A stretch of 64,000 nt of DNA from Methylotenera sp. GTDB lineage: Bacteria; Pseudomonadota; Gammaproteobacteria; Burkholderiales; Methylophilaceae. The position numbers were made by a program, and so were the translations under genes. Positions 52,403 through 58,346 of this stretch are shown one piece after another. Each line of letters begins with the position of its first letter. The first letter of the stretch is position 1. Below the pieces are notes generated by a model, which saw only the letters and a list, made by a program, of their open reading frames with translations, was not told where the DNA came from and searched no databases. The stretch covers positions 7,142-71,141 of the forward strand of contig JBKJIJ010000021.1 of assembly GCA_046598525.1 (NCBI GenBank), in the 5' to 3' direction.

Positions 52403-52440
52403 CCTTGCAATATACGGAATTAAGTTCCATAATTGCAAGG
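52403..52440 (+). promoter_or_regulatory. Sigma70 promoter embedded in an inverted repeat (candidate operator)
   Basis: TTGCAA-17-CATAAT; arms CCTTGCAAT (52403-52411) and ATTGCAAGG (52432-52440), inner GGAA/TTCC. Confidence 0.75.
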
Positions 52441-53601
52441 ATGAATAACCGTTTTATATTGCCAAGTTTATTAGAAGCACTCAGCTACTCTCCCGCTGTA
52501 GCATTGCTAGGCCCAAGGCAAGTAGGTAAAACAACGCTTGCATTTGAGGTTGGTAAGCATATAACTAAACCAACGTTATACCTCGATTTAGAATCTGAGC
52601 AAGATCGCGCAAAACTAGTCAACGCAGAGCTATATTTAAGCGGGCATCAAGACAAGCTCGTGATACTAGATGAAGTGCACCGCGCGCCTAACTTATTCCC
52701 GTTATTGCGCGGCTTAATAGACCAAGCTCGCCGTGCAAATAATGGCACATGCTTATATTTACTATTAGGCTCTGCCTCTTTAGATTTACTCAAGCAATCA
52801 GGCGAGACACTAGCTGGACGTATCAGCTATATGGAGCTGCCTGCCTTTAATATCTTAGAAATTGACGCGCAGCAATCAGATGATTTATGGGTAAGAGGTG
52901 GTTTTCCCGATAGCTTTTTAGCTAAGACAGAAGTGCGAAGCTTGCGCTGGCGGCAAGACTTTATCCGCAGTTATTTAGAGCGAGATATTCCGCAATTTGG
53001 ACCACGCATCGCTACCGAAACGCTACGCCGTTTTTGGGGCATGCTTGCACATCACCAAGGTGGCTTATTAAATACGGCAGAGCTTGCGCGAAACTTAGGT
53101 GTGGATAATAAAACCGCTGGTAGTTATTTAGAGTTATTAATCGATTTACTACTAGTTAGACGCTTGCCGCCTTGGCATGCCAATGTCGGCAAACGTCTTA
53201 CCAAAGCCTCTAAAGTGTATGTTCGCGATAGCGGGCTTATTCATACGCTACTTAATATACCAGACAAAGAAACGCTGCTAGGCCACCCAATTGTGGGCAA
53301 TAGCTGGGAGTGTTTTGTGATTGAAAATATACTCAACACCGCACCTGCAAACGTACAAGGTTACTTTTACCGAACCAGTGGCGGCGCCGAAATTGACTTG
53401 CTACTAGCATGGCCAAATGGTGACCTTTGGGCCATTGAGATTAAACGTAGCCTAAACCCAAAAATTGAACGTGGGTTTTACTCCGCCTGTGCAGATCTCA
53501 ACCCAACTCGAAAATTTGTAGTGTACCCAGCGCAAGAGCAATATCGTTTAGCTGAAGATATAACCGTTATTTCGCTTGTTGAAATTTGTCGGCTATTGTA
53601 A
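52441..53601 (+). CDS. AAA+ ATPase with DUF4143 C-terminal domain
   Basis: GPRQVGKTT, VILDEVH, LLLGSAS, HTH-like segment, EIDLL...AIEIK nuclease-like motif. Confidence 0.9.
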   Translation: MNNRFILPSLLEALSYSPAVALLGPRQVGKTTLAFEVGKHITKPTLYLDLESEQDRAKLVNAELYLSGHQDKLVILDEVHRAPNLFPLLRGLIDQARRANNGTCLYLLLGSASLDLLKQSGETLAGRISYMELPAFNILEIDAQQSDDLWVRGGFPDSFLAKTEVRSLRWRQDFIRSYLERDIPQFGPRIATETLRRFWGMLAHHQGGLLNTAELARNLGVDNKTAGSYLELLIDLLLVRRLPPWHANVGKRLTKASKVYVRDSGLIHTLLNIPDKETLLGHPIVGNSWECFVIENILNTAPANVQGYFYRTSGGAEIDLLLAWPNGDLWAIEIKRSLNPKIERGFYSACADLNPTRKFVVYPAQEQYRLAEDITVISLVEICRLL

Positions 53602-53676
53602 ATACATTAACTTAAACACTCATTTTAGTAGTGGTATCAGCGGTGTATTCGTTGGTAATAAGCAGGATGCAACGGT

Positions 53677-54612
53677 TTATTTTTTAGCTAAACTAATAAC
53701 CAAAACCCCCACTAAAACAAATAGCGTTCCAGCTATTTGTAGCCACGTTATTTGTTCGCCTAAAAAAACATAAGCAAGAAATACGGTCGAAACTGGTCCA
53801 ACAGAGCTGATTAACGCGGCTTTGCTGCTGCCAATTTTATGTATACCCACGTTGAGAAAAATGGCAGGTAGTACGGTGGCAACAATCGCCATTAACAAGC
53901 TTAACCAATATACTGGTGTTGGTAAATTGAATATAGTCACTGGGTGCGACGTGCTTGCATAATGCGCAGCACTGGCTGCAGTGGCGGCCAACATGGTGTA
54001 AGCGGTAAAGGCTAATGCGCCAATGCGTGGAATCAACTGGCCGCTCACAATTAAATAGGCGGCATAAGTAATAGCGCTAGCCGCCACCAAACCTGCACCT
54101 AGCATGGTTTCTGCCGAATCAGTTTTAAGCAAAAATACATCATGGCCAACCACCAAAGCCACACCCGCATAAGTTAATAATATTGCAAAGTAAGCACGCT
54201 TTCCTACGCGCTGCTTGAATAATAGCGCGCTTATAATCACCACGATTGTCGGATAAATGTACAAGATAATGCGCTCTAATCCTGCTGTGACGTAAGCCAA
54301 GCCTTCAAAATCTAGCAACATTGGTGCGTAACCGCCAAGTACGCCTAATACGGCAATAATGCCAGCATCTCGACTGGTTATTTTGGGTGTTGCTGCCGAA
54401 GTACGCACCCAAAATGCTAATGCAATAAAAAATGGTGCAGAAAACGCCATTCTTAATGCAATAAGCGTAGAAGCATCAACTGTAAATGGCGCGCTTTGTG
54501 CATAAGCAAGTTTCACCATAACCGCTTTAGACGATACAGTAATTGCAGCGGCCAACACCATCAATGCCCCTATTAAGGCATTGCGAGCAGCTTGTTTAGT
54601 TTGAGATTGCAT
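53677..54612 (-). CDS. EamA/DMT family transporter
   Basis: Two EamA repeats, about 10 TMs; start moved to ATG 54612 (MQSQTK) behind an AAGGG SD. Confidence 0.9.
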   Translation of the reverse strand: MQSQTKQAARNALIGALMVLAAAITVSSKAVMVKLAYAQSAPFTVDASTLIALRMAFSAPFFIALAFWVRTSAATPKITSRDAGIIAVLGVLGGYAPMLLDFEGLAYVTAGLERIILYIYPTIVVIISALLFKQRVGKRAYFAILLTYAGVALVVGHDVFLLKTDSAETMLGAGLVAASAITYAAYLIVSGQLIPRIGALAFTAYTMLAATAASAAHYASTSHPVTIFNLPTPVYWLSLLMAIVATVLPAIFLNVGIHKIGSSKAALISSVGPVSTVFLAYVFLGEQITWLQIAGTLFVLVGVLVISLAKK

Positions 54613-54657
54613 ATTAGAGCCCTTAATTATGGGCTCAAGGGGAAGGGTGTAACGAAT

Positions 54658-54680
54658 CAACCGCGGAGAGCCCGCGGTTG
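54658..54680 (-). terminator. GC-rich attenuator-like hairpin downstream of the leader peptide
   Basis: CAACCGCGG-GCTCT-CCGCGGTTG, then an imperfect U-rich tail (ATTCGTT). Confidence 0.65.
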
Positions 54681-54688
54681 CATAAAAT

Positions 54689-54784
54689 TTACGACAAGCA
54701 ACAACCGCAGCAAGTAATGGCTAGTAGCCATAATGCGTTACGGTTAATGACCGCAAAGGCGGTTATGTATTTGCTGTTTATCAT
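54689..54784 (-). CDS. Putative Cys-rich leader peptide (31 aa) MINSKYITAFAVINRNALWLLAITCCGCCLS
   Basis: Translated by hand; TGC TGC GGT TGT TGC just before the stop; directly downstream of a consensus promoter; below the ORF-track length cutoff. Confidence 0.7.
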   Translation of the reverse strand: MINSKYITAFAVINRNALWLLAITCCGCCLS

Positions 54785-54794
54785 AAGGCTGGGA

Positions 54795-54823
54795 ATTCTA
54801 CGCGGATGTTATTGGACGGTCAA
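54795..54823 (-). promoter_or_regulatory. Sigma70 promoter for leader peptide and EamA gene
   Basis: TTGACC (54823-54818) - 17 nt - TAGAAT (54800-54795). Confidence 0.8.
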
Positions 54824-54829
54824 ACCTCA

Positions 54830-55369
54830 TTAAGCTCGGCTAGCAACCAACTTAGCCAAATACTCTAAATTAAGCCCTTCCAGTTTTGGCTGCCATAAAT
54901 CTGGTTTTACAGGAAAATCTATAAACTCACCCGTGCGCTGGTAGCCAAGCCGCTCGTAAAAGTCAATAAGCTCGTGCCGTATAGAAATAACGGCCATATG
55001 AAACCCTACCACGCGCCATTCTCTAGCTGTCATGGCTTCTGCGGCTTGAATCATGGTGGTGCCGTGGCCTTTGTTTTGCAGGGTGGGTTTTACGGCTATC
55101 ATGCCAAGGTGGGCGATATTTCTGCCGTGGGCGTCTTGCTTCTCACAGCTAATGGTGGCCACAATTTGATCGCGCAAAACACCCACCAACACAAATGCAT
55201 CTTCATGTTTAATCATGCTGGCGACTTCTTGCGTGGTGGTGCGTAAGCCATCTAGAATATCCGCTTCGGTGGTCCAGCCTGCGCGGCTGCTTTCACCGCG
55301 ATAGGCAGAGTTGATAAGGGCAGCAATATCTTGCGCGTCGACTAGTTCGGCTTTATGAAAATGTAGCAT
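54830..55369 (-). CDS. GNAT family N-acetyltransferase
   Basis: AVKPTLQNKGHG acetyl-CoA motif, FYERLGY. Confidence 0.9.
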   Translation of the reverse strand: MLHFHKAELVDAQDIAALINSAYRGESSRAGWTTEADILDGLRTTTQEVASMIKHEDAFVLVGVLRDQIVATISCEKQDAHGRNIAHLGMIAVKPTLQNKGHGTTMIQAAEAMTAREWRVVGFHMAVISIRHELIDFYERLGYQRTGEFIDFPVKPDLWQPKLEGLNLEYLAKLVASRA

Positions 55370-55393
55370 GCTAATTCTGAGTATTTTCTCTGA

Positions 55394-56626
55394 CTATTTA
55401 TTGACTAATTTTTGAACAACAAGGCTGCCAATCATATCGCCCTGCACATTAACGGTGGTGCGTATGGTGTCTAGCAGCCTGTCAATTGGTAGCAAAATCG
55501 CAATTGCTTCGGCAGGCAAACCCACACTTTGCAGCACCATCACCATGGTCACCATGCCTGCGCTGGGAATGCCCGGCGCGCCGATGGCGGCTATCATGGC
55601 GGTGACGAATACAATTAATTGCTGGGTTAGATTCAAATCAATGCCGACTAAATTGGCAATAAATAAAGCCGCTGCCGCTTCATATAAAGCCGTTCCGTCC
55701 ATATTTACGGTAGCGCCAAGCGGCACTACAAAGCCTGCTATTTCTGGCTTCACATGCAAATGCTGTGTGGTACAGCGCATGGTGACAGGCAGTGTGGCGC
55801 TGCTGGAGCTAGTGGCGAAGGCGGTAATCAGCGCCTCACGCGCGCCGCGCCAAAACCACAATGGCGTTTTGCCGGTGATTAAATACAGCAATAGCGGCAA
55901 TATCACCACGCCATGCAGCAATGTGGTGCCAACCACCACGGTCATAAATTTGGCCATGGTGCCCAGCATGGCGGTATCTTGAGTAGCAATTAACTTAATT
56001 AATAAAGCCGCAATGCCAAACGGCGCCAGCACCATCACCCAGCCTACAATGCGCATGGTCAACTCTAAGCCTTCTTGCAATAAGCCTAAAATATTCTTAT
56101 ATCGCTCACCGCCCACCACTAGCGCAATGCCTAGAATCAGCGCAAATATCACCACAGCCAGCACATTTCCCGTTGCTAATGCCGCAAAAGGATTCATAAA
56201 TAAGCCATGCAAAAATTGCGCAAAAAATTCGGGTAGCGGTAACTGTTGCGCTTGAAAATTTTGCATAGAATCAGCAAACATGGCGATTTGCACGCCAGCG
56301 CCTGGCTTGAAATAATTGCTGGCAAACATGCCTAAGGCAATGGCAATGGCCATGGTGAATGCAAAGAACACTAACGTGGTGACCCACACGCGGTGCATTT
56401 GGCTGTGTTGGCGCAAATTGGCAATGCCTACCGCAATACTGCAAAAAACCAGCGGGATTAAAATCATCTTGAGCAAATCGATAAACAGTGTGCCGATTAG
56501 ACCCGATGCGTATAAACCGCCTTTGACTAGATTATTTTCTGCGCCTAAGCCGTGAAAATATAAGCCGATTAAGATGCCAAACACTGCGCCGATAAGGATT
56601 TGTAGATTAAGGCTGGGTAGTTTCAT
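55394..56626 (-). CDS. Dicarboxylate/amino acid:cation symporter (DAACS)
   Basis: TSSSSATLP, GATVNMDGTALY, DTIRTTVNV; start at ATG 56626 or 56641, not 56710, which lies in a repeat. Confidence 0.9.
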   Translation of the reverse strand: MKLPSLNLQILIGAVFGILIGLYFHGLGAENNLVKGGLYASGLIGTLFIDLLKMILIPLVFCSIAVGIANLRQHSQMHRVWVTTLVFFAFTMAIAIALGMFASNYFKPGAGVQIAMFADSMQNFQAQQLPLPEFFAQFLHGLFMNPFAALATGNVLAVVIFALILGIALVVGGERYKNILGLLQEGLELTMRIVGWVMVLAPFGIAALLIKLIATQDTAMLGTMAKFMTVVVGTTLLHGVVILPLLLYLITGKTPLWFWRGAREALITAFATSSSSATLPVTMRCTTQHLHVKPEIAGFVVPLGATVNMDGTALYEAAAALFIANLVGIDLNLTQQLIVFVTAMIAAIGAPGIPSAGMVTMVMVLQSVGLPAEAIAILLPIDRLLDTIRTTVNVQGDMIGSLVVQKLVNK

Positions 56627-56683
56627 GGCAAGCAGTTTCATGGCAGTTATCTTCAATGCAATTAAAGTATGAATATCACAATC

Positions 56684-56761
56684 GTCATTCCCGCGCAGGC
56701 GGGAATCCATGCTGACCTTGATTTAAACCTTAAAATGGATTCCCGCTTGCGCGAGAATGAC
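56684..56761. repeat. Inverted doublet of CGTC-type REP palindromes (dRS3-like ATTCCC-N8-GGGAAT)
   Basis: GTCATTCCCGC-GCAG-GCGGGAATCCA ... TGGATTCCCGC-TTGC-GCGAGAATGAC. Confidence 0.88.
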
Positions 56762-56777: not shown

Positions 56778-58346
56778 TTACTCTTCAATAACTTTTGGTT
56801 TGGCTACCTTGTCTTTTACTACCTTAGCTTTTACCACTTTTTCTTTAACTGGCTTTTCTTTTACTACTTCTTCTTTTATTGCTTTTTCTTTGATAACTTT
56901 TTCTTTAACCGCTTTTGGCTTTGCAGCGGCTTTTACCGTTTTTAATGCAGGCTCAATTTCCGCTTCTGTTTCTGCTTCCGCCTCATCCGCCACGGCGGCT
57001 TTAATGTGCTCAATTAGCTCGGCGGCTTCTTGTACAATTTCGGCTGACATTTTTACCACATTGTCAGACGGATTTGCTTTTTCAAATACAGCGGCAAAAA
57101 AGCCATCGGTGCCATGCAAATGTGGCAATAGTTTTAAATAATCGCCAGTATCCAGCTTTATTTGCTGATGACTTAATACCGTGTTGGCGGGTACTAATTT
57201 AAAATCAGGATTTGCAGCCAAAAACGCTTCGGCAATCGCTTCGTTTTCATCTTTTAATAAGCTGCAAGTGGCGTAAATTAAGCGGCCACCTGTTTTAGTT
57301 AGCTTGGCTGCGCGCGCCAAAATATTGGTTTGTTTGATATTAAGCTCTGCAATATCGGCATCTTCAAAACGCCATTTTAAATCAGGGTTACGGCGCAGCG
57401 TGCCAAAACCGCTACATGGCGCATCCACTAGCACACGGTCAAACTTACCATTTAAGCGCTTTAATTTAGGATCATTTTCAGAGCTGATGACTTGCGCGTG
57501 CAAATTGGATAAACCAGAACGTTTAAGGCGTTTGCCTAAGTTAAATAAGCGTTTTTCAGAGATATCAAACGCATATAAACGGCCTGTGTTTTTCATTAAA
57601 GCGCCGATTGCTAACGTTTTTCCGCCTGCGCCTGCACAAAAATCGGCCACCATTTGGCCGCGCTTTGGCGCAACCAAATACGCCAATAACTGGCTGCCTT
57701 CGTCTTGCACTTCAATCTTGCCAGCTTCAAATAGCACATGCTTGCTAATATTTAACCGCGCGCCCATGCGAATGCCAATGGGCGAATGTGGCGTTACTTC
57801 TATCACATTATCTTTAATGGTATTTTCGGCCAGCATGCGCGCCAATACTTCTTCGCGCGTGCCTTTAATGGTATTTACGCGCAAATCTAGCGCGGCTTGA
57901 TCAAACATACTGCGGCAAATGGTCAGCGCTTCGGCTTCACCATATTGCGCCACTAGCTTGTTCCAAAGCCAATCGCGCACATCCGCCTGCACAGGCAGCG
58001 GAAAATCTTGCGTCGATTTAGCTTTAATCGAATGCGCCCACTCGGTTTGTTGCTCATTTAAAATAGGCTCTAATTCGCGGATGCTTTTGCCTTGCACGCG
58101 CAATAACCACGCCAAAATCAGCTTACGCGCATCATCTGGGTCGTTTGCTTCATTCGCCGTTACCGCGCTTAAATAGCGCAATCGGCGCAAAACCCCATAG
58201 ACACTCTCAGCCACAAACGCGCGGTCTTTGGTGCCCAGTTCACGATTATTGCGAAAAAAATCGCCTAATTTGGCATCGGCTGGGCTATTAAAATCCAGCA
58301 GATTAGTGAGTAGCATGGCGGCTTGGCGCAGTAAATTTGGGGTCAT
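56778..58346 (-). CDS. RsmB/NOP-family RNA m5C methyltransferase with charged C-terminal tail
   Basis: VQDEGSQL, DFCAGAGGKT, DAPCSG, YATCS, TDGFFAA. Confidence 0.9.
   Translation of the reverse strand: MTPNLLRQAAMLLTNLLDFNSPADAKLGDFFRNNRELGTKDRAFVAESVYGVLRRLRYLSAVTANEANDPDDARKLILAWLLRVQGKSIRELEPILNEQQTEWAHSIKAKSTQDFPLPVQADVRDWLWNKLVAQYGEAEALTICRSMFDQAALDLRVNTIKGTREEVLARMLAENTIKDNVIEVTPHSPIGIRMGARLNISKHVLFEAGKIEVQDEGSQLLAYLVAPKRGQMVADFCAGAGGKTLAIGALMKNTGRLYAFDISEKRLFNLGKRLKRSGLSNLHAQVISSENDPKLKRLNGKFDRVLVDAPCSGFGTLRRNPDLKWRFEDADIAELNIKQTNILARAAKLTKTGGRLIYATCSLLKDENEAIAEAFLAANPDFKLVPANTVLSHQQIKLDTGDYLKLLPHLHGTDGFFAAVFEKANPSDNVVKMSAEIVQEAAELIEHIKAAVADEAEAETEAEIEPALKTVKAAAKPKAVKEKVIKEKAIKEEVVKEKPVKEKVVKAKVVKDKVAKPKVIEE

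Follow-up and report, generated by a model that had tools for sequence, protein, structure and literature searches.

A candidate ribosome-dependent leader switch with a cysteine-codon strand upstream of a DMT-superfamily transporter of Methylophilaceae

The stretch considered here is a 64-kb window of Methylotenera sp. contig JBKJIJ010000021.1, in which the gene for a DMT-superfamily transporter is preceded by a leader that combines a near-leaderless upstream open reading frame (uORF) ending in a cluster of Cys codons, a G+C-rich hairpin (T) shortly beyond the uORF stop codon, and a second hairpin that covers the Shine-Dalgarno (SD) sequence of the transporter. From conservation of the sequence and from constrained folding, we judge the evidence to be evenly balanced as to whether this leader is a ribosome-dependent switch through which the transporter is made only under cysteine sufficiency, when translation of the uORF proceeds smoothly. 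The transporter would then probably be shut off when cysteine is short, which is opposite to the behavior of classical attenuators; we infer this direction from the modeled folds, of which expression that is OFF at low cysteine is the most parsimonious reading. All features of the leader are on the minus strand, and coordinates are positions in the 64-kb window.

The leader and its occurrence with the transporter

The leader begins with a sigma-70-type promoter (54795..54823) in which TTGACC (54823-54818) and TAGAAT (54800-54795) are separated by a 17-nt spacer and which, scoring 10 of 12 in a promoter scan, is the top site of the region. Exactly 10 nt of pyrimidine-rich sequence, TCCCAGCCTT, devoid of an SD, lie between the end of the −10 box and the ATG (54784) of the uORF (54689..54784), whose 31 codons specify MINSKYITAFAVINRNALWLLAITCCGCCLS. 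Close to its end is a strand, TGC TGC GGT TGT TGC (54698..54712), designated here the Cys strand, the core of which, GCGGUUG(U/C) (54708-54701), has potential partners either upstream (helices P3 and P1, described below) or in the 5′ arm of the T hairpin; GCGGTTG at 54708-54702 is the exact complement of CAACCGC at 54680-54674. The T hairpin (CAACCGCGG-GCUCU-CCGCGGUUG, 54658..54680) has a G+C-rich stem of 9 bp, begins 8 nt past the stop codon, has a ΔG of −15.8 kcal/mol, and would mark the OFF state. It is followed by a pyrimidine-rich, G-poor spacer (54631..54657; 68% pyrimidine and 14% G) that could act as an anti-SD or form part of a Rho site and that ends in strand D, GAGCCC (54636-54631), which can pair with the SD strand or with the top of T. 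The initiation region of the transporter (54610..54624) contains the SD AAGGG (54624-54620), in strand E, GGGCUC (54622-54617), and the ATG (54612-54610). The promoter 10 nt before a 31-residue ORF without an SD, and the complementarity of its Cys codons to a hairpin 8 nt beyond the stop, had been noted in a sequence-only reading of the window; the coordinates given there are right, the complementarity is present in the letters, and both arrangements are kept across the clade of related transporters. This conservation is important, since 10 Cys-rich small ORFs are present in the window, two of which were checked and are spurious, being inside long ORFs; Cys-rich small ORFs are therefore not rare per se, and the significance of the leader rests on its conservation.

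A genome scan identified two close relatives, both metagenome-assembled genomes of Methylophilaceae, that have the same promoter, uORF, and hairpin, and a metagenome scan with the transporter alignment gave 80 loci with identities of 38-77%. The leader is found in all 44 loci, those of the genome scan included, in which the transporter is at least 48% identical, and in none of the 42 in which it is 47% identical or less; the distant homologues have neither the motif nor a promoter-proximal short ORF, except for locus L003, which has a short ORF. Loss of the uORF or its Cys codons in relatives, which the sequence-only reading had named as evidence that would tell against it, was thus not encountered: in each of the 44 loci, the uORF ends in ..(R)KALWLxAxxCCGCCLS-stop, with CCGCFDLI, YCGCCFS, CRGCCLS, CCGCYLS, and SCGCC(C/R)SS as variants, and is accompanied by the hairpin motif, and every leader has the promoter TTGAC(C/G)-N17-(G)TAnnnT, always ending 10 nt before the ATG. 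The named homologues are all from Methylophilaceae (Methylotenera, Methylopumilus, Methylophilus, Methylovorus, and Novimethylophilus), and cultured strains with the leader include Methylovorus glucosetrophus SIP3-4 and Methylovorus MP688, both with complete genomes, and Methylophilus rhizosphaerae; the leader switch is apparently specific to this family. The gene order rsmB, SDF symporter, GNAT or cupredoxin gene, leader, transporter is conserved. The gene just upstream of the leader encodes a GNAT acetyltransferase in the window (54830-55369), L001, L002, and Methylophilus, and the same place is occupied by a cupredoxin gene (PF00127; L088:2297-2746) in two Methylovorus genomes; because this neighbor differs between genomes, the leader appears to travel with the transporter and not with the upstream gene. 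A repeated, REP-like (repetitive extragenic palindrome) element or mobile DNA was ruled out as the origin of the conserved motif, the T hairpin motif being single-copy in the window and without a plasmid match. In the Gallionellaceae homologue at L003 (2766-2905; 47% identity), which is without the Cys leader, a TTGACT-17-TATATT promoter stands ~8 nt before a 31-codon ORF (MQMRLINSAGSLTHQRLGLASLVHCRSAFLF), beyond which GCGGGUC and GACCCGC are complementary; possibly, this is an analogue of the leader or a form of it that has diverged.

The counts and folds that follow refer to 34 distinct leaders, and the RNAalifold analyses and pair counts to a 40-sequence alignment (A2). In-frame stop codons number 0 in the uORF frame versus 79 and 22 in the other two frames. 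The uORF occurs in eight lengths (27, 28, 29, 30, 31, 32, 33, and 36 codons), each indel being a multiple of three, and the position of the ATG is fixed relative to the −10 box in all leaders. Its N-terminal half is variable, unlike the C-terminal ..WLxAxxCCGCCLS, which is retained. There are 3-4 Cys codons in each uORF, all of them 3-8 codons before the stop and none elsewhere, with UGC used 108 times and UGU 16 times. The sequence UGCGGUUG is invariant, including the third position of the Gly codon, and the use of GGU for this Gly in every case suggests that the RNA is constrained. The peptide shows no conservation apart from W, G, and C (K/N, A/V/I, L/V/W/G, L/R), and in some clades the C-terminal LS is exchanged for RSS, CSS, FDVI, or YLS, each directly before the stop, with compensating changes in P1. 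From these comparisons, the pattern is that of a leader peptide, and neither that of a functional small protein nor that of an arrest peptide under strong constraint, and we infer that the uORF is translated and that Cys charging is sensed. A functional small protein is ruled out by the unconserved N-terminal half and the absence of any hydrophobic span of transmembrane length. One Methylotenera clade (L001 (2900-2935), L008, and L012) has a 13-nt insertion (UUUGAUSUMAUUUAG) after the third Cys codon that produces an earlier UAG stop and changes CCGCCLS-stop to CCGCFD(L/V)I-stop; the former 3′ strand of P1 (GUCGUCAUAA) is retained downstream of the new stop.

Closed and open folds of the leader RNA

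The 191-nt leader of the window has a folding energy of −63.2 kcal/mol, corresponding to a z of −5.1 relative to dinucleotide shuffles. In the closed fold, 88% of the alignment cells are paired, compared with 34-51% in slid controls, and 15 pairs show double changes, a number reached in 0 of 500 shuffles. The closing helix, P1, is formed by a 5′ strand, UUAUGAUAA (54778..54786), that comprises the uORF start codon and 2 nt of 5′ untranslated region, and a 3′ strand, UUGUCGUAA (54689..54697), that comprises the stop codon and the two sense codons before it; P1 continues into the last Cys codons, the 5′ end CUUAUGACAA.., with the AUG, pairing with ..GCUUGUCGUAA, which contains the last Cys codons and the stop. 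A P1 duplex of 12-17 bp with an energy of −9 to −16 kcal/mol is present in 33 of the 34 leaders (84% of cells paired). It has compensatory variants, AUGAAAA:UUUUCAU in L002 and both GACGAAC:GUUCGUC and UCA:UGA in the L041 clade, and since these alter the peptide, the helix has been kept despite peptide change. In addition, there is covariation between base −2 and the middle base of the stop codon, U occurring with UAA and C with UGA (a UA pair in 31 sequences, a CG pair in 5), which suggests that the transcript has at least 2 nt before the AUG and is near-leaderless, not strictly leaderless.

Two further hairpins lie within the uORF. P0 (ACCGC-CUUU-GCGGU, 54750..54763) is part of the minimum free energy (MFE) fold of the window leader and has the general form CYGC-N4-GCRG; it has compensatory CUGC/GCAG changes in L016, L018, and L020 and double changes in four of its five pairs, and with only 71% of cells paired it is not universal. 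In the P3/P4 domain (54709..54745), AACCG..GCA (54745-54734) pairs with UGC..CGGUU (54712-54703) and encloses AUGGC-UACUA-GCCAU (54731-54717). P3, (A)GCA:UGC(U), pairs the Lys-Ala codons with the first Cys codon, and P4, UGGC:GCCA, is invariant and holds the Trp codon; 92% and 96% of the cells in these helices are paired, and the pair that flanks P4 (129:143) is GC in 18, AU in 12, and GU in 3 sequences. It may be noted that the hairpin AUGGC-N5-GCCAU (54717-54731), which contains the sole Trp codon, and two A residues before GCA do not vary among the 40 leaders, the letters of the hairpin staying fixed while its flanking pair covaries freely. The sequence-only reading had assigned the Cys codons alternative pairings with an earlier TAACCGC (54765-54759), itself complementary to a local GCGGT (54754-54750), and with the hairpin arm. 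Both motifs are found in the window leader, and the existence of mutually exclusive folds is supported, but TAACCGC is not the main upstream partner of the Cys strand, a role taken instead by GCA:UGC and AACCG:CGGUU around the UGGC/GCCA hairpin and by the closing helix P1. P1, the two hairpins inside the uORF, and the complementarity of the T top to D, all supported by covariation, are elements beyond those that had been noted before.

The T hairpin is paired in 99% of cells and includes changes from CG to UA on four occasions, as well as AU compensations in L021 and L028. The SD is sequestered in the D:E hairpin, which has a ΔG of −11.7 kcal/mol, is part of the MFE fold, and covaries (GAGUCC/GGACU in L090). 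Each of these hairpins has a competitor. In all leaders, GCGGUUGC in the Cys strand is complementary to GCAACCGC, which consists of the flank and 5′ arm of T, with 96% of cells paired and a duplex energy of −17.6 kcal/mol in the window and −18.1 kcal/mol on average in the family. The top of T, GGGCUC (54673-54668; (CGC)GGGCUC), is complementary to D, (G)AGCCC(GC), and the resulting duplex (−10 to −18 kcal/mol) is at least as strong as D:E in nearly all leaders. It also covaries, being AGGCUC:GAGCCU in L021, GAGCUC:GAGCUC in L028, GCGGGCC:GGCCCGC in L022, and GCGGGCU:AGCCCGC in L023 and L024; in L021 and L028, one change in the 5′ arm of T (T5) is compensated in both the 3′ arm (T3) and D, as expected if T5 swaps between partners. 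Taken together, the two helices of the open fold, Cys strand:T5 and T-top:D, are paired in 96% of cells, compared with 38-58% in slid controls. Direct pairing of the Cys tract with the SD, in mycobacterial style, was also considered and is not general; in the window, no more than a partial match with the transporter start, GGUUGC:GCAAUC, was noted.

A structured RNA of this type might be a riboswitch or a protein-binding RNA, the three-way junction of P1, P0, and P3-P4 serving as the aptamer or protein site, its stabilization keeping the Cys strand in place and promoting T, and the ORF being incidental, or the perfect inverted repeat might be a DNA operator. The layout does resemble that of an OFF-riboswitch in that the 3′ strand of the closing helix competes with the expression platform, and there is no variation in the UGGC/GCCA hairpin or in some of the unpaired A residues. 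However, an Rfam cmscan of positions 53500-55500 at E values up to 10 gave only chance matches to miRNA and snoRNA families, the reading frame is open in 34 of 34 leaders despite the eight lengths, all multiples of three, the ATG is fixed to the −10 box, the 5′ half and P0 are poorly conserved, and no regulator gene adjoins the leader. Such an RNA is therefore scarcely probable. A DNA operator palindrome was rejected because T has G·U variants and takes part in a three-way complementarity that also involves the Cys strand and D, both of which point to a function in RNA.

The sequence-only reading had also spoken of an antiterminator that opposes T. As an intrinsic terminator, T is not convincing, and sequestration of the SD is better supported. 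The tail of T in the window, AUUCGUUA, has 4 U in 8 positions, and a terminator scan makes no call; a lenient U-tail rule is satisfied by 17 of the 34 leaders, the window leader failing it, and three leaders have A-rich tails, whereas some relatives have U-rich tails, such as UUGUUUUUAGU in L012 and UUGUUUUGUAGUUU in L022. In a sediment metatranscriptome, the sole informative contig, from a close relative of L014, extends from codon 9 of the uORF through T and into the coding sequence of the transporter, and no RNA contig upstream of the uORF was found in that data set; the start of the contig inside the uORF fits the position of the promoter, and the contig shows that read-through transcripts are present. 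The stretch in the window itself was met with in three ice metatranscriptomes only, which gave low-depth contigs of the coding sequences of relatives and none on the leader, and for L016 and L012 no useful RNA contigs were obtained. Classical transcription attenuation, in which T would be an intrinsic terminator and the decision purely transcriptional, draws on the stable 9-bp G+C stem and on the good U tails of L012 and L022, but the tails in the window and in the family as a whole, the transcript that reads through T, and the conservation of both SD sequestration and T-top:D, which indicate translational control, render it very unlikely as the sole mechanism, although it could act in some lineages beside the favored one. 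Translational control is therefore favored, to which some lineages may add weak termination or polarity caused by Rho.

Predicted direction of the switch

The folds suggest a mechanism in which transcription would start 2-4 nt before the AUG of the 31-codon uORF, which has no SD. In the closed, untranslated RNA, P1 would join the 5′ end, with the AUG, to the 3′ end of the uORF, with the stop, and upstream sequences of the uORF (P3 and P1) would hold the Cys strand; T would be formed, D would be paired with the transporter SD, and the transporter would be OFF. Ribosomes translating the 5′ part of the uORF would remove the upstream partners of the Cys strand, the freed strand, GCGGUUGC, would take the 5′ arm of T, GCAACCGC, and the top of T, GGGCUC, would capture D, GAGCCC, leaving the SD free and the transporter ON. 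In starvation, Cys-tRNA(Cys) would be scarce and the ribosome would stall with a Cys codon in the A site and the Cys strand covered, so that T and the SD hairpin would persist and the transporter would be OFF. In terms of the segments of an attenuator, the 5′ half of the uORF would be segment 1, the Cys strand segment 2, T5 segment 3, and T3 segment 4, to which D and E would contribute the translational output. A ribosome stalled on the Cys codons, that is, in segment 2, would mask the sole strand that can open T, and OFF is therefore predicted in starvation; an uORF that is not translated would likewise be OFF, and smooth, repeated translation would let the open fold form.

These states were examined by folding. 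The full-length free RNA is closed in 32 of the 34 leaders, and when the 5′ half of the uORF is removed, the open fold becomes the MFE structure in 20 of the 34, with the Cys strand paired with T5, the T top with D, and T3 with CCCG, and the SD freed from D. In partition-function folds with a 28-nt ribosome mask, the probability of the T hairpin is 0.93 in free RNA without a ribosome, 0.69 with a ribosome on the first codons, and 0.62 with a ribosome at the stop, and is 0.96 with the ribosomal A site on a Cys codon, in agreement with the proposal in the sequence-only reading that stalling on the Cys codons leaves the hairpin intact and gives OFF at low cysteine, as a predicted direction. Opening the initiation region costs 9.2 kcal/mol on average when a ribosome occupies the Cys codons and 5.8 kcal/mol when the 5′ half is unavailable, the former state being the more costly in 27 of the 34 leaders. 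The melting of T by a terminating ribosome was rejected as the sole ON mechanism: the distance from the stop to the hairpin is 6-9 nt in most leaders, which leaves at least five G+C pairs, and 10-16 nt in three clades.

It should be recognized that several observations weigh against a switch that is turned on by cysteine sufficiency. In the window leader itself, the predicted switch is weak and this difference in cost is absent: opening requires 10.4-12 kcal/mol whichever ribosome state is modeled, and the state with the hairpin prevails. The helices of the open fold are near-invariant, with three double changes only, and their support therefore consists of conserved complementarity together with these three changes. 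Every Cys codon is in a base-paired strand, the first Cys is replaced by Tyr in L002 through a compensated change (GCA:UGC to AUA:UAU), and the second Cys is Arg in one clade, so that the coding of Cys could in part be a by-product of the RNA sequence. The stop codon is 16 nt before the hairpin in the L001/L008/L012 clade, from which it follows that any role of a terminating ribosome is not universal. Finally, tRNA charging reports starvation and not excess, and no characterized leader-peptide attenuator is known to us that does not switch ON upon stalling.

A first alternative is the classical direction, in which charging of Cys-tRNA would be sensed and the transporter, which would import or scavenge cysteine, cystine, or some other form of sulfur, would be ON in starvation. 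This direction is shared by trp, his, the mycobacterial poly-Cys small ORFs, and the predicted cysS uORF, and some DMT proteins are importers; furthermore, a ribosome on the Cys strand frees AACCG, which could pair with the 3′ arm and tail of the hairpin (AUUAACCG:CGGUUGAU in the window). The position of the Cys codons is unfavorable to it, however, as they are in the strand complementary to the 5′ arm of T and not in the strand upstream of it, and all of the constrained folds with a ribosome on Cys keep both T (probability 0.96) and the SD hairpin. The AACCG sequence is missing in several clades and would have to outcompete a local hairpin of 9 bp and −15.8 kcal/mol. We consider this direction unlikely.

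A second alternative is a switch that is gated by translation but blind to Cys, in which the codons would be a by-product of the GC-rich strand UGCUGCGGUUGCUGC and the leader would report translation capacity or the efficiency of near-leaderless initiation. All of the Cys codons are in helices, GGU and the flanking G/C are fixed, and Tyr or Arg replaces Cys where pairing is kept; the sequestration of the uORF AUG by P1 also implies that the timing of initiation matters. Nevertheless, at least three Cys codons are always kept, and the L041 clade, having lost the first, has gained another downstream. Synonymous UGC/UGU changes occur, the frame is fixed in all leaders though the other two frames encode no Cys, and a random stretch of five codons would contain at least three Cys codons with a frequency of ~3e-4 by a rough estimate. 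A Cys-blind switch is thus doubtful.

A third possibility is a nascent-peptide sensor of the TnaC/SpeFL type, in which ..WLxAxxCCGCCLS would arrest the ribosome near the stop in the presence of free cysteine, a thiol, or a metal, block Rho loading or the hairpin, and turn expression ON at ligand excess. Nascent-chain sensors such as TnaC and SpeFL are known, and a uORF with a Cys motif in Bordetella reportedly senses copper. The Trp is invariant and, in most leaders, 13 residues from the C terminus, most leaders have 6-9 nt between the stop and the hairpin, the spacer beyond the hairpin is rich in C and poor in G, and sensing of excess would suit an exporter. Against this, the peptide is unconserved outside W, G, and C, all of which are explained by invariant RNA helices, LS-stop is replaced with changes that compensate P1, and the spacing from Trp to the C terminus differs in the L001 clade; an arrest peptide is accordingly very improbable. 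The switch gated by cysteine sufficiency can be placed in a broader proposition, that the leader would be the first amino-acid-sensing uORF with its hungry codons in the anti-hairpin strand, being OFF in starvation and ON with smooth translation of a self-sequestering, near-leaderless uORF, and, across Methylophilaceae, gating a thiol or cysteine exporter according to whether cysteine is sufficient; this we advance tentatively, as somewhat less probable than not.

The transporter, known systems, and neighboring genes

The transporter (53677..54612) is a DMT-superfamily protein of 311 residues with two EamA domains, counted from the conserved ATG at 54612. The mechanically derived ORF starts at TTG 54660, inside the T hairpin, but conservation of the SD and of ATGCAA in relatives indicates that the true start is ATG 54612; automatic annotation could therefore absorb part of the leader (54613-54660). 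PF00892 is recorded for all close homologues, and the source records name a “DMT family transporter.” Consistent with this superfamily, the protein has two PF00892 repeats and a length of ~300 residues, and it matches TIGR00950 at 3e-21, which is under the cut-off of that model; no NCBIfam equivalog was found at or above its cut-off. The sequence-only reading had based a role in cysteine export on the EamA name, an argument that fails, as the common ground with Escherichia coli EamA is the Pfam domain only. The identity with EamA, which is annotated as a cysteine/O-acetylserine exporter, is 23% with a pairwise E of 0.006, and E. coli YijE, annotated as a cystine exporter, is nearer, with 28% identity over 205 residues and an E of 4e-11; all three are members of the same superfamily with two EamA (PF00892) domains. 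By sequence, the transporter is not an EamA orthologue, and neither orthology nor substrate can be drawn from the resemblance. The leader itself and, weakly, YijE suggest a cysteine-related substrate, and gating by cysteine sufficiency would be appropriate for a protein that exports cysteine or a related thiol or sulfur metabolite. The gene is monocistronic and is not, by its annotation, a cysteine or sulfur assimilation gene.

Leader-peptide attenuation is a textbook mechanism, but to our knowledge there was for decades no known example for cysteine, the tested cases are mycobacterial only, and all known cases are ON upon starvation. The present leader has a conserved open leader ORF, a cluster of codons for one amino acid, and mutually exclusive pairings that overlap the ORF, as do attenuators in general; it differs in that a stalled ribosome is not predicted to favor an antiterminator or anti-sequester, the Cys codons being in the anti-hairpin strand and the hairpin probability 0.96. 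It resembles trpL, hisL, leuL, thrL, and pheL in having a short ORF that is rich in codons for one amino acid and exclusive 1:2, 2:3, and 3:4 pairings, but differs from them in that the regulatory codons are in segment 2 and not segment 1, there is no SD, the AUG pairs with the stop, the terminator is doubtful, and the output is probably translational and inverse. In pyrL of pyrBI, as predicted here, translation of the leader up to the hairpin permits expression and a lagging ribosome lets the hairpin form; however, pyrL senses UTP by RNA-polymerase pausing and its ORF continues through the terminator, whereas here the sensing would be by hungry Cys codons in an ORF that ends 6-16 nt before the hairpin.

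Leaderless poly-Cys small ORFs of mycobacteria regulate the translation of downstream cys genes, the Cys tract pairing directly with the SD, which is freed upon stalling (Canestrari et al., 10.1101/834739); their action as Cys sensors, to which the sequence-only reading had appealed, has been shown experimentally (10.1101/834739). Like mycobacterial Ms5788A/Rv0815A, the Methylophilaceae leader opens, at or close to the mRNA 5′ terminus, with an ORF of ~30 codons that lacks an SD and has a 3′-terminal Cys cluster, and it has a spacer of ~80-100 nt before the regulated gene and a Cys strand that is paired in a very stable leader fold; control is translational and not exerted by an intrinsic terminator, and the untranslated leader is locked OFF, both of which are predictions in the present case. 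The differences are that the mycobacterial tract pairs with the SD and is ON at low cysteine, whereas the Cys strand here pairs with the 5′ arm of T, the SD is paired by D and not by the Cys tract, and OFF at low cysteine is predicted; eight consecutive Cys codons contrast with 3-4 Cys codons interrupted by Gly, a cysteine-biosynthesis operon contrasts with a DMT transporter, and the transcript described here probably has a 5′ untranslated region of 2-4 nt. The occurrence in another phylum and the lack of sequence similarity to the mycobacterial small ORFs suggest an independent origin.

The sequence-only reading had stated that no such system was known in Proteobacteria. This does not hold, since uORFC-8-2, a Cys-codon uORF upstream of cysS in Rhodobacterales, had already been predicted to be an attenuator (Brewer et al. 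2021, PMC8632094). This motif and the Methylophilaceae leader are alike in being predicted ribosome-mediated attenuators of Proteobacteria with conserved Cys codons, mostly UGC with some UGU, in a stem. uORFC-8-2 is a uORF dependent on a ribosome-binding site that has two tandem Cys at ~14-15, a terminator with a U-run, cysS as its target, and predicted read-through on stalling; the Methylophilaceae leader differs in being near-leaderless, with CCGCC where the uORF ends, no consistent U tail, an SD-sequestering platform, and a transporter as its target. As it lacks membership features of each of these named families, the leader is filed under ribosome-mediated attenuation as a distinct variant.

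With this leader, sensing through Cys codons would reach Betaproteobacteria and would act on a transporter in place of a biosynthetic operon, and if the predicted direction is true, the same parts (uORF, hungry codons, and competing helices) give the opposite logic when the codons are shifted from segment 1 to segment 2. The leader also offers a clue to function, namely cysteine, cystine, or a thiol, for an uncharacterized DMT transporter that is conserved in a major group of freshwater and soil methylotrophs, and adds an unannotated small ORF and RNA element to Methylophilaceae genomes. The element is present in cultured, genetically tractable strains (Methylovorus glucosetrophus SIP3-4 and Methylophilus).

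Some features of the surrounding window may be recorded. Convergent with the transporter gene is an ORF of 398 residues (52405-53601, plus strand) with the P-loop GPRQVGKTT, for which no NCBIfam match was found at E up to 0.001. Between the SDF symporter gene and rsmB, an inverted pair of 24-nt REP-like palindromic units occupies 56684-56761, with the unit GTCATTCCCGCGCAGGCGGGAATC at 56684-56707 on the plus strand and a copy with two mismatches at 56738-56761 on the minus strand. The mechanically derived ORF of the symporter (55394..56710) begins inside a REP-like unit (MDSRLRGNDD...), and its true start is therefore probably a downstream ATG. The RsmB-like methyltransferase ORF (56778-58346, minus strand) has a long, repetitive tail rich in Lys, Glu, and Val (..KAVKEKVIKEKAIKEEVVKEKPVKEKVVKAKVVKDKVAKPKVIEE) and is 522 residues in length in the window, compared with 432 and 421 residues in the shorter homologues of Methylovorus and Methylophilus, respectively.

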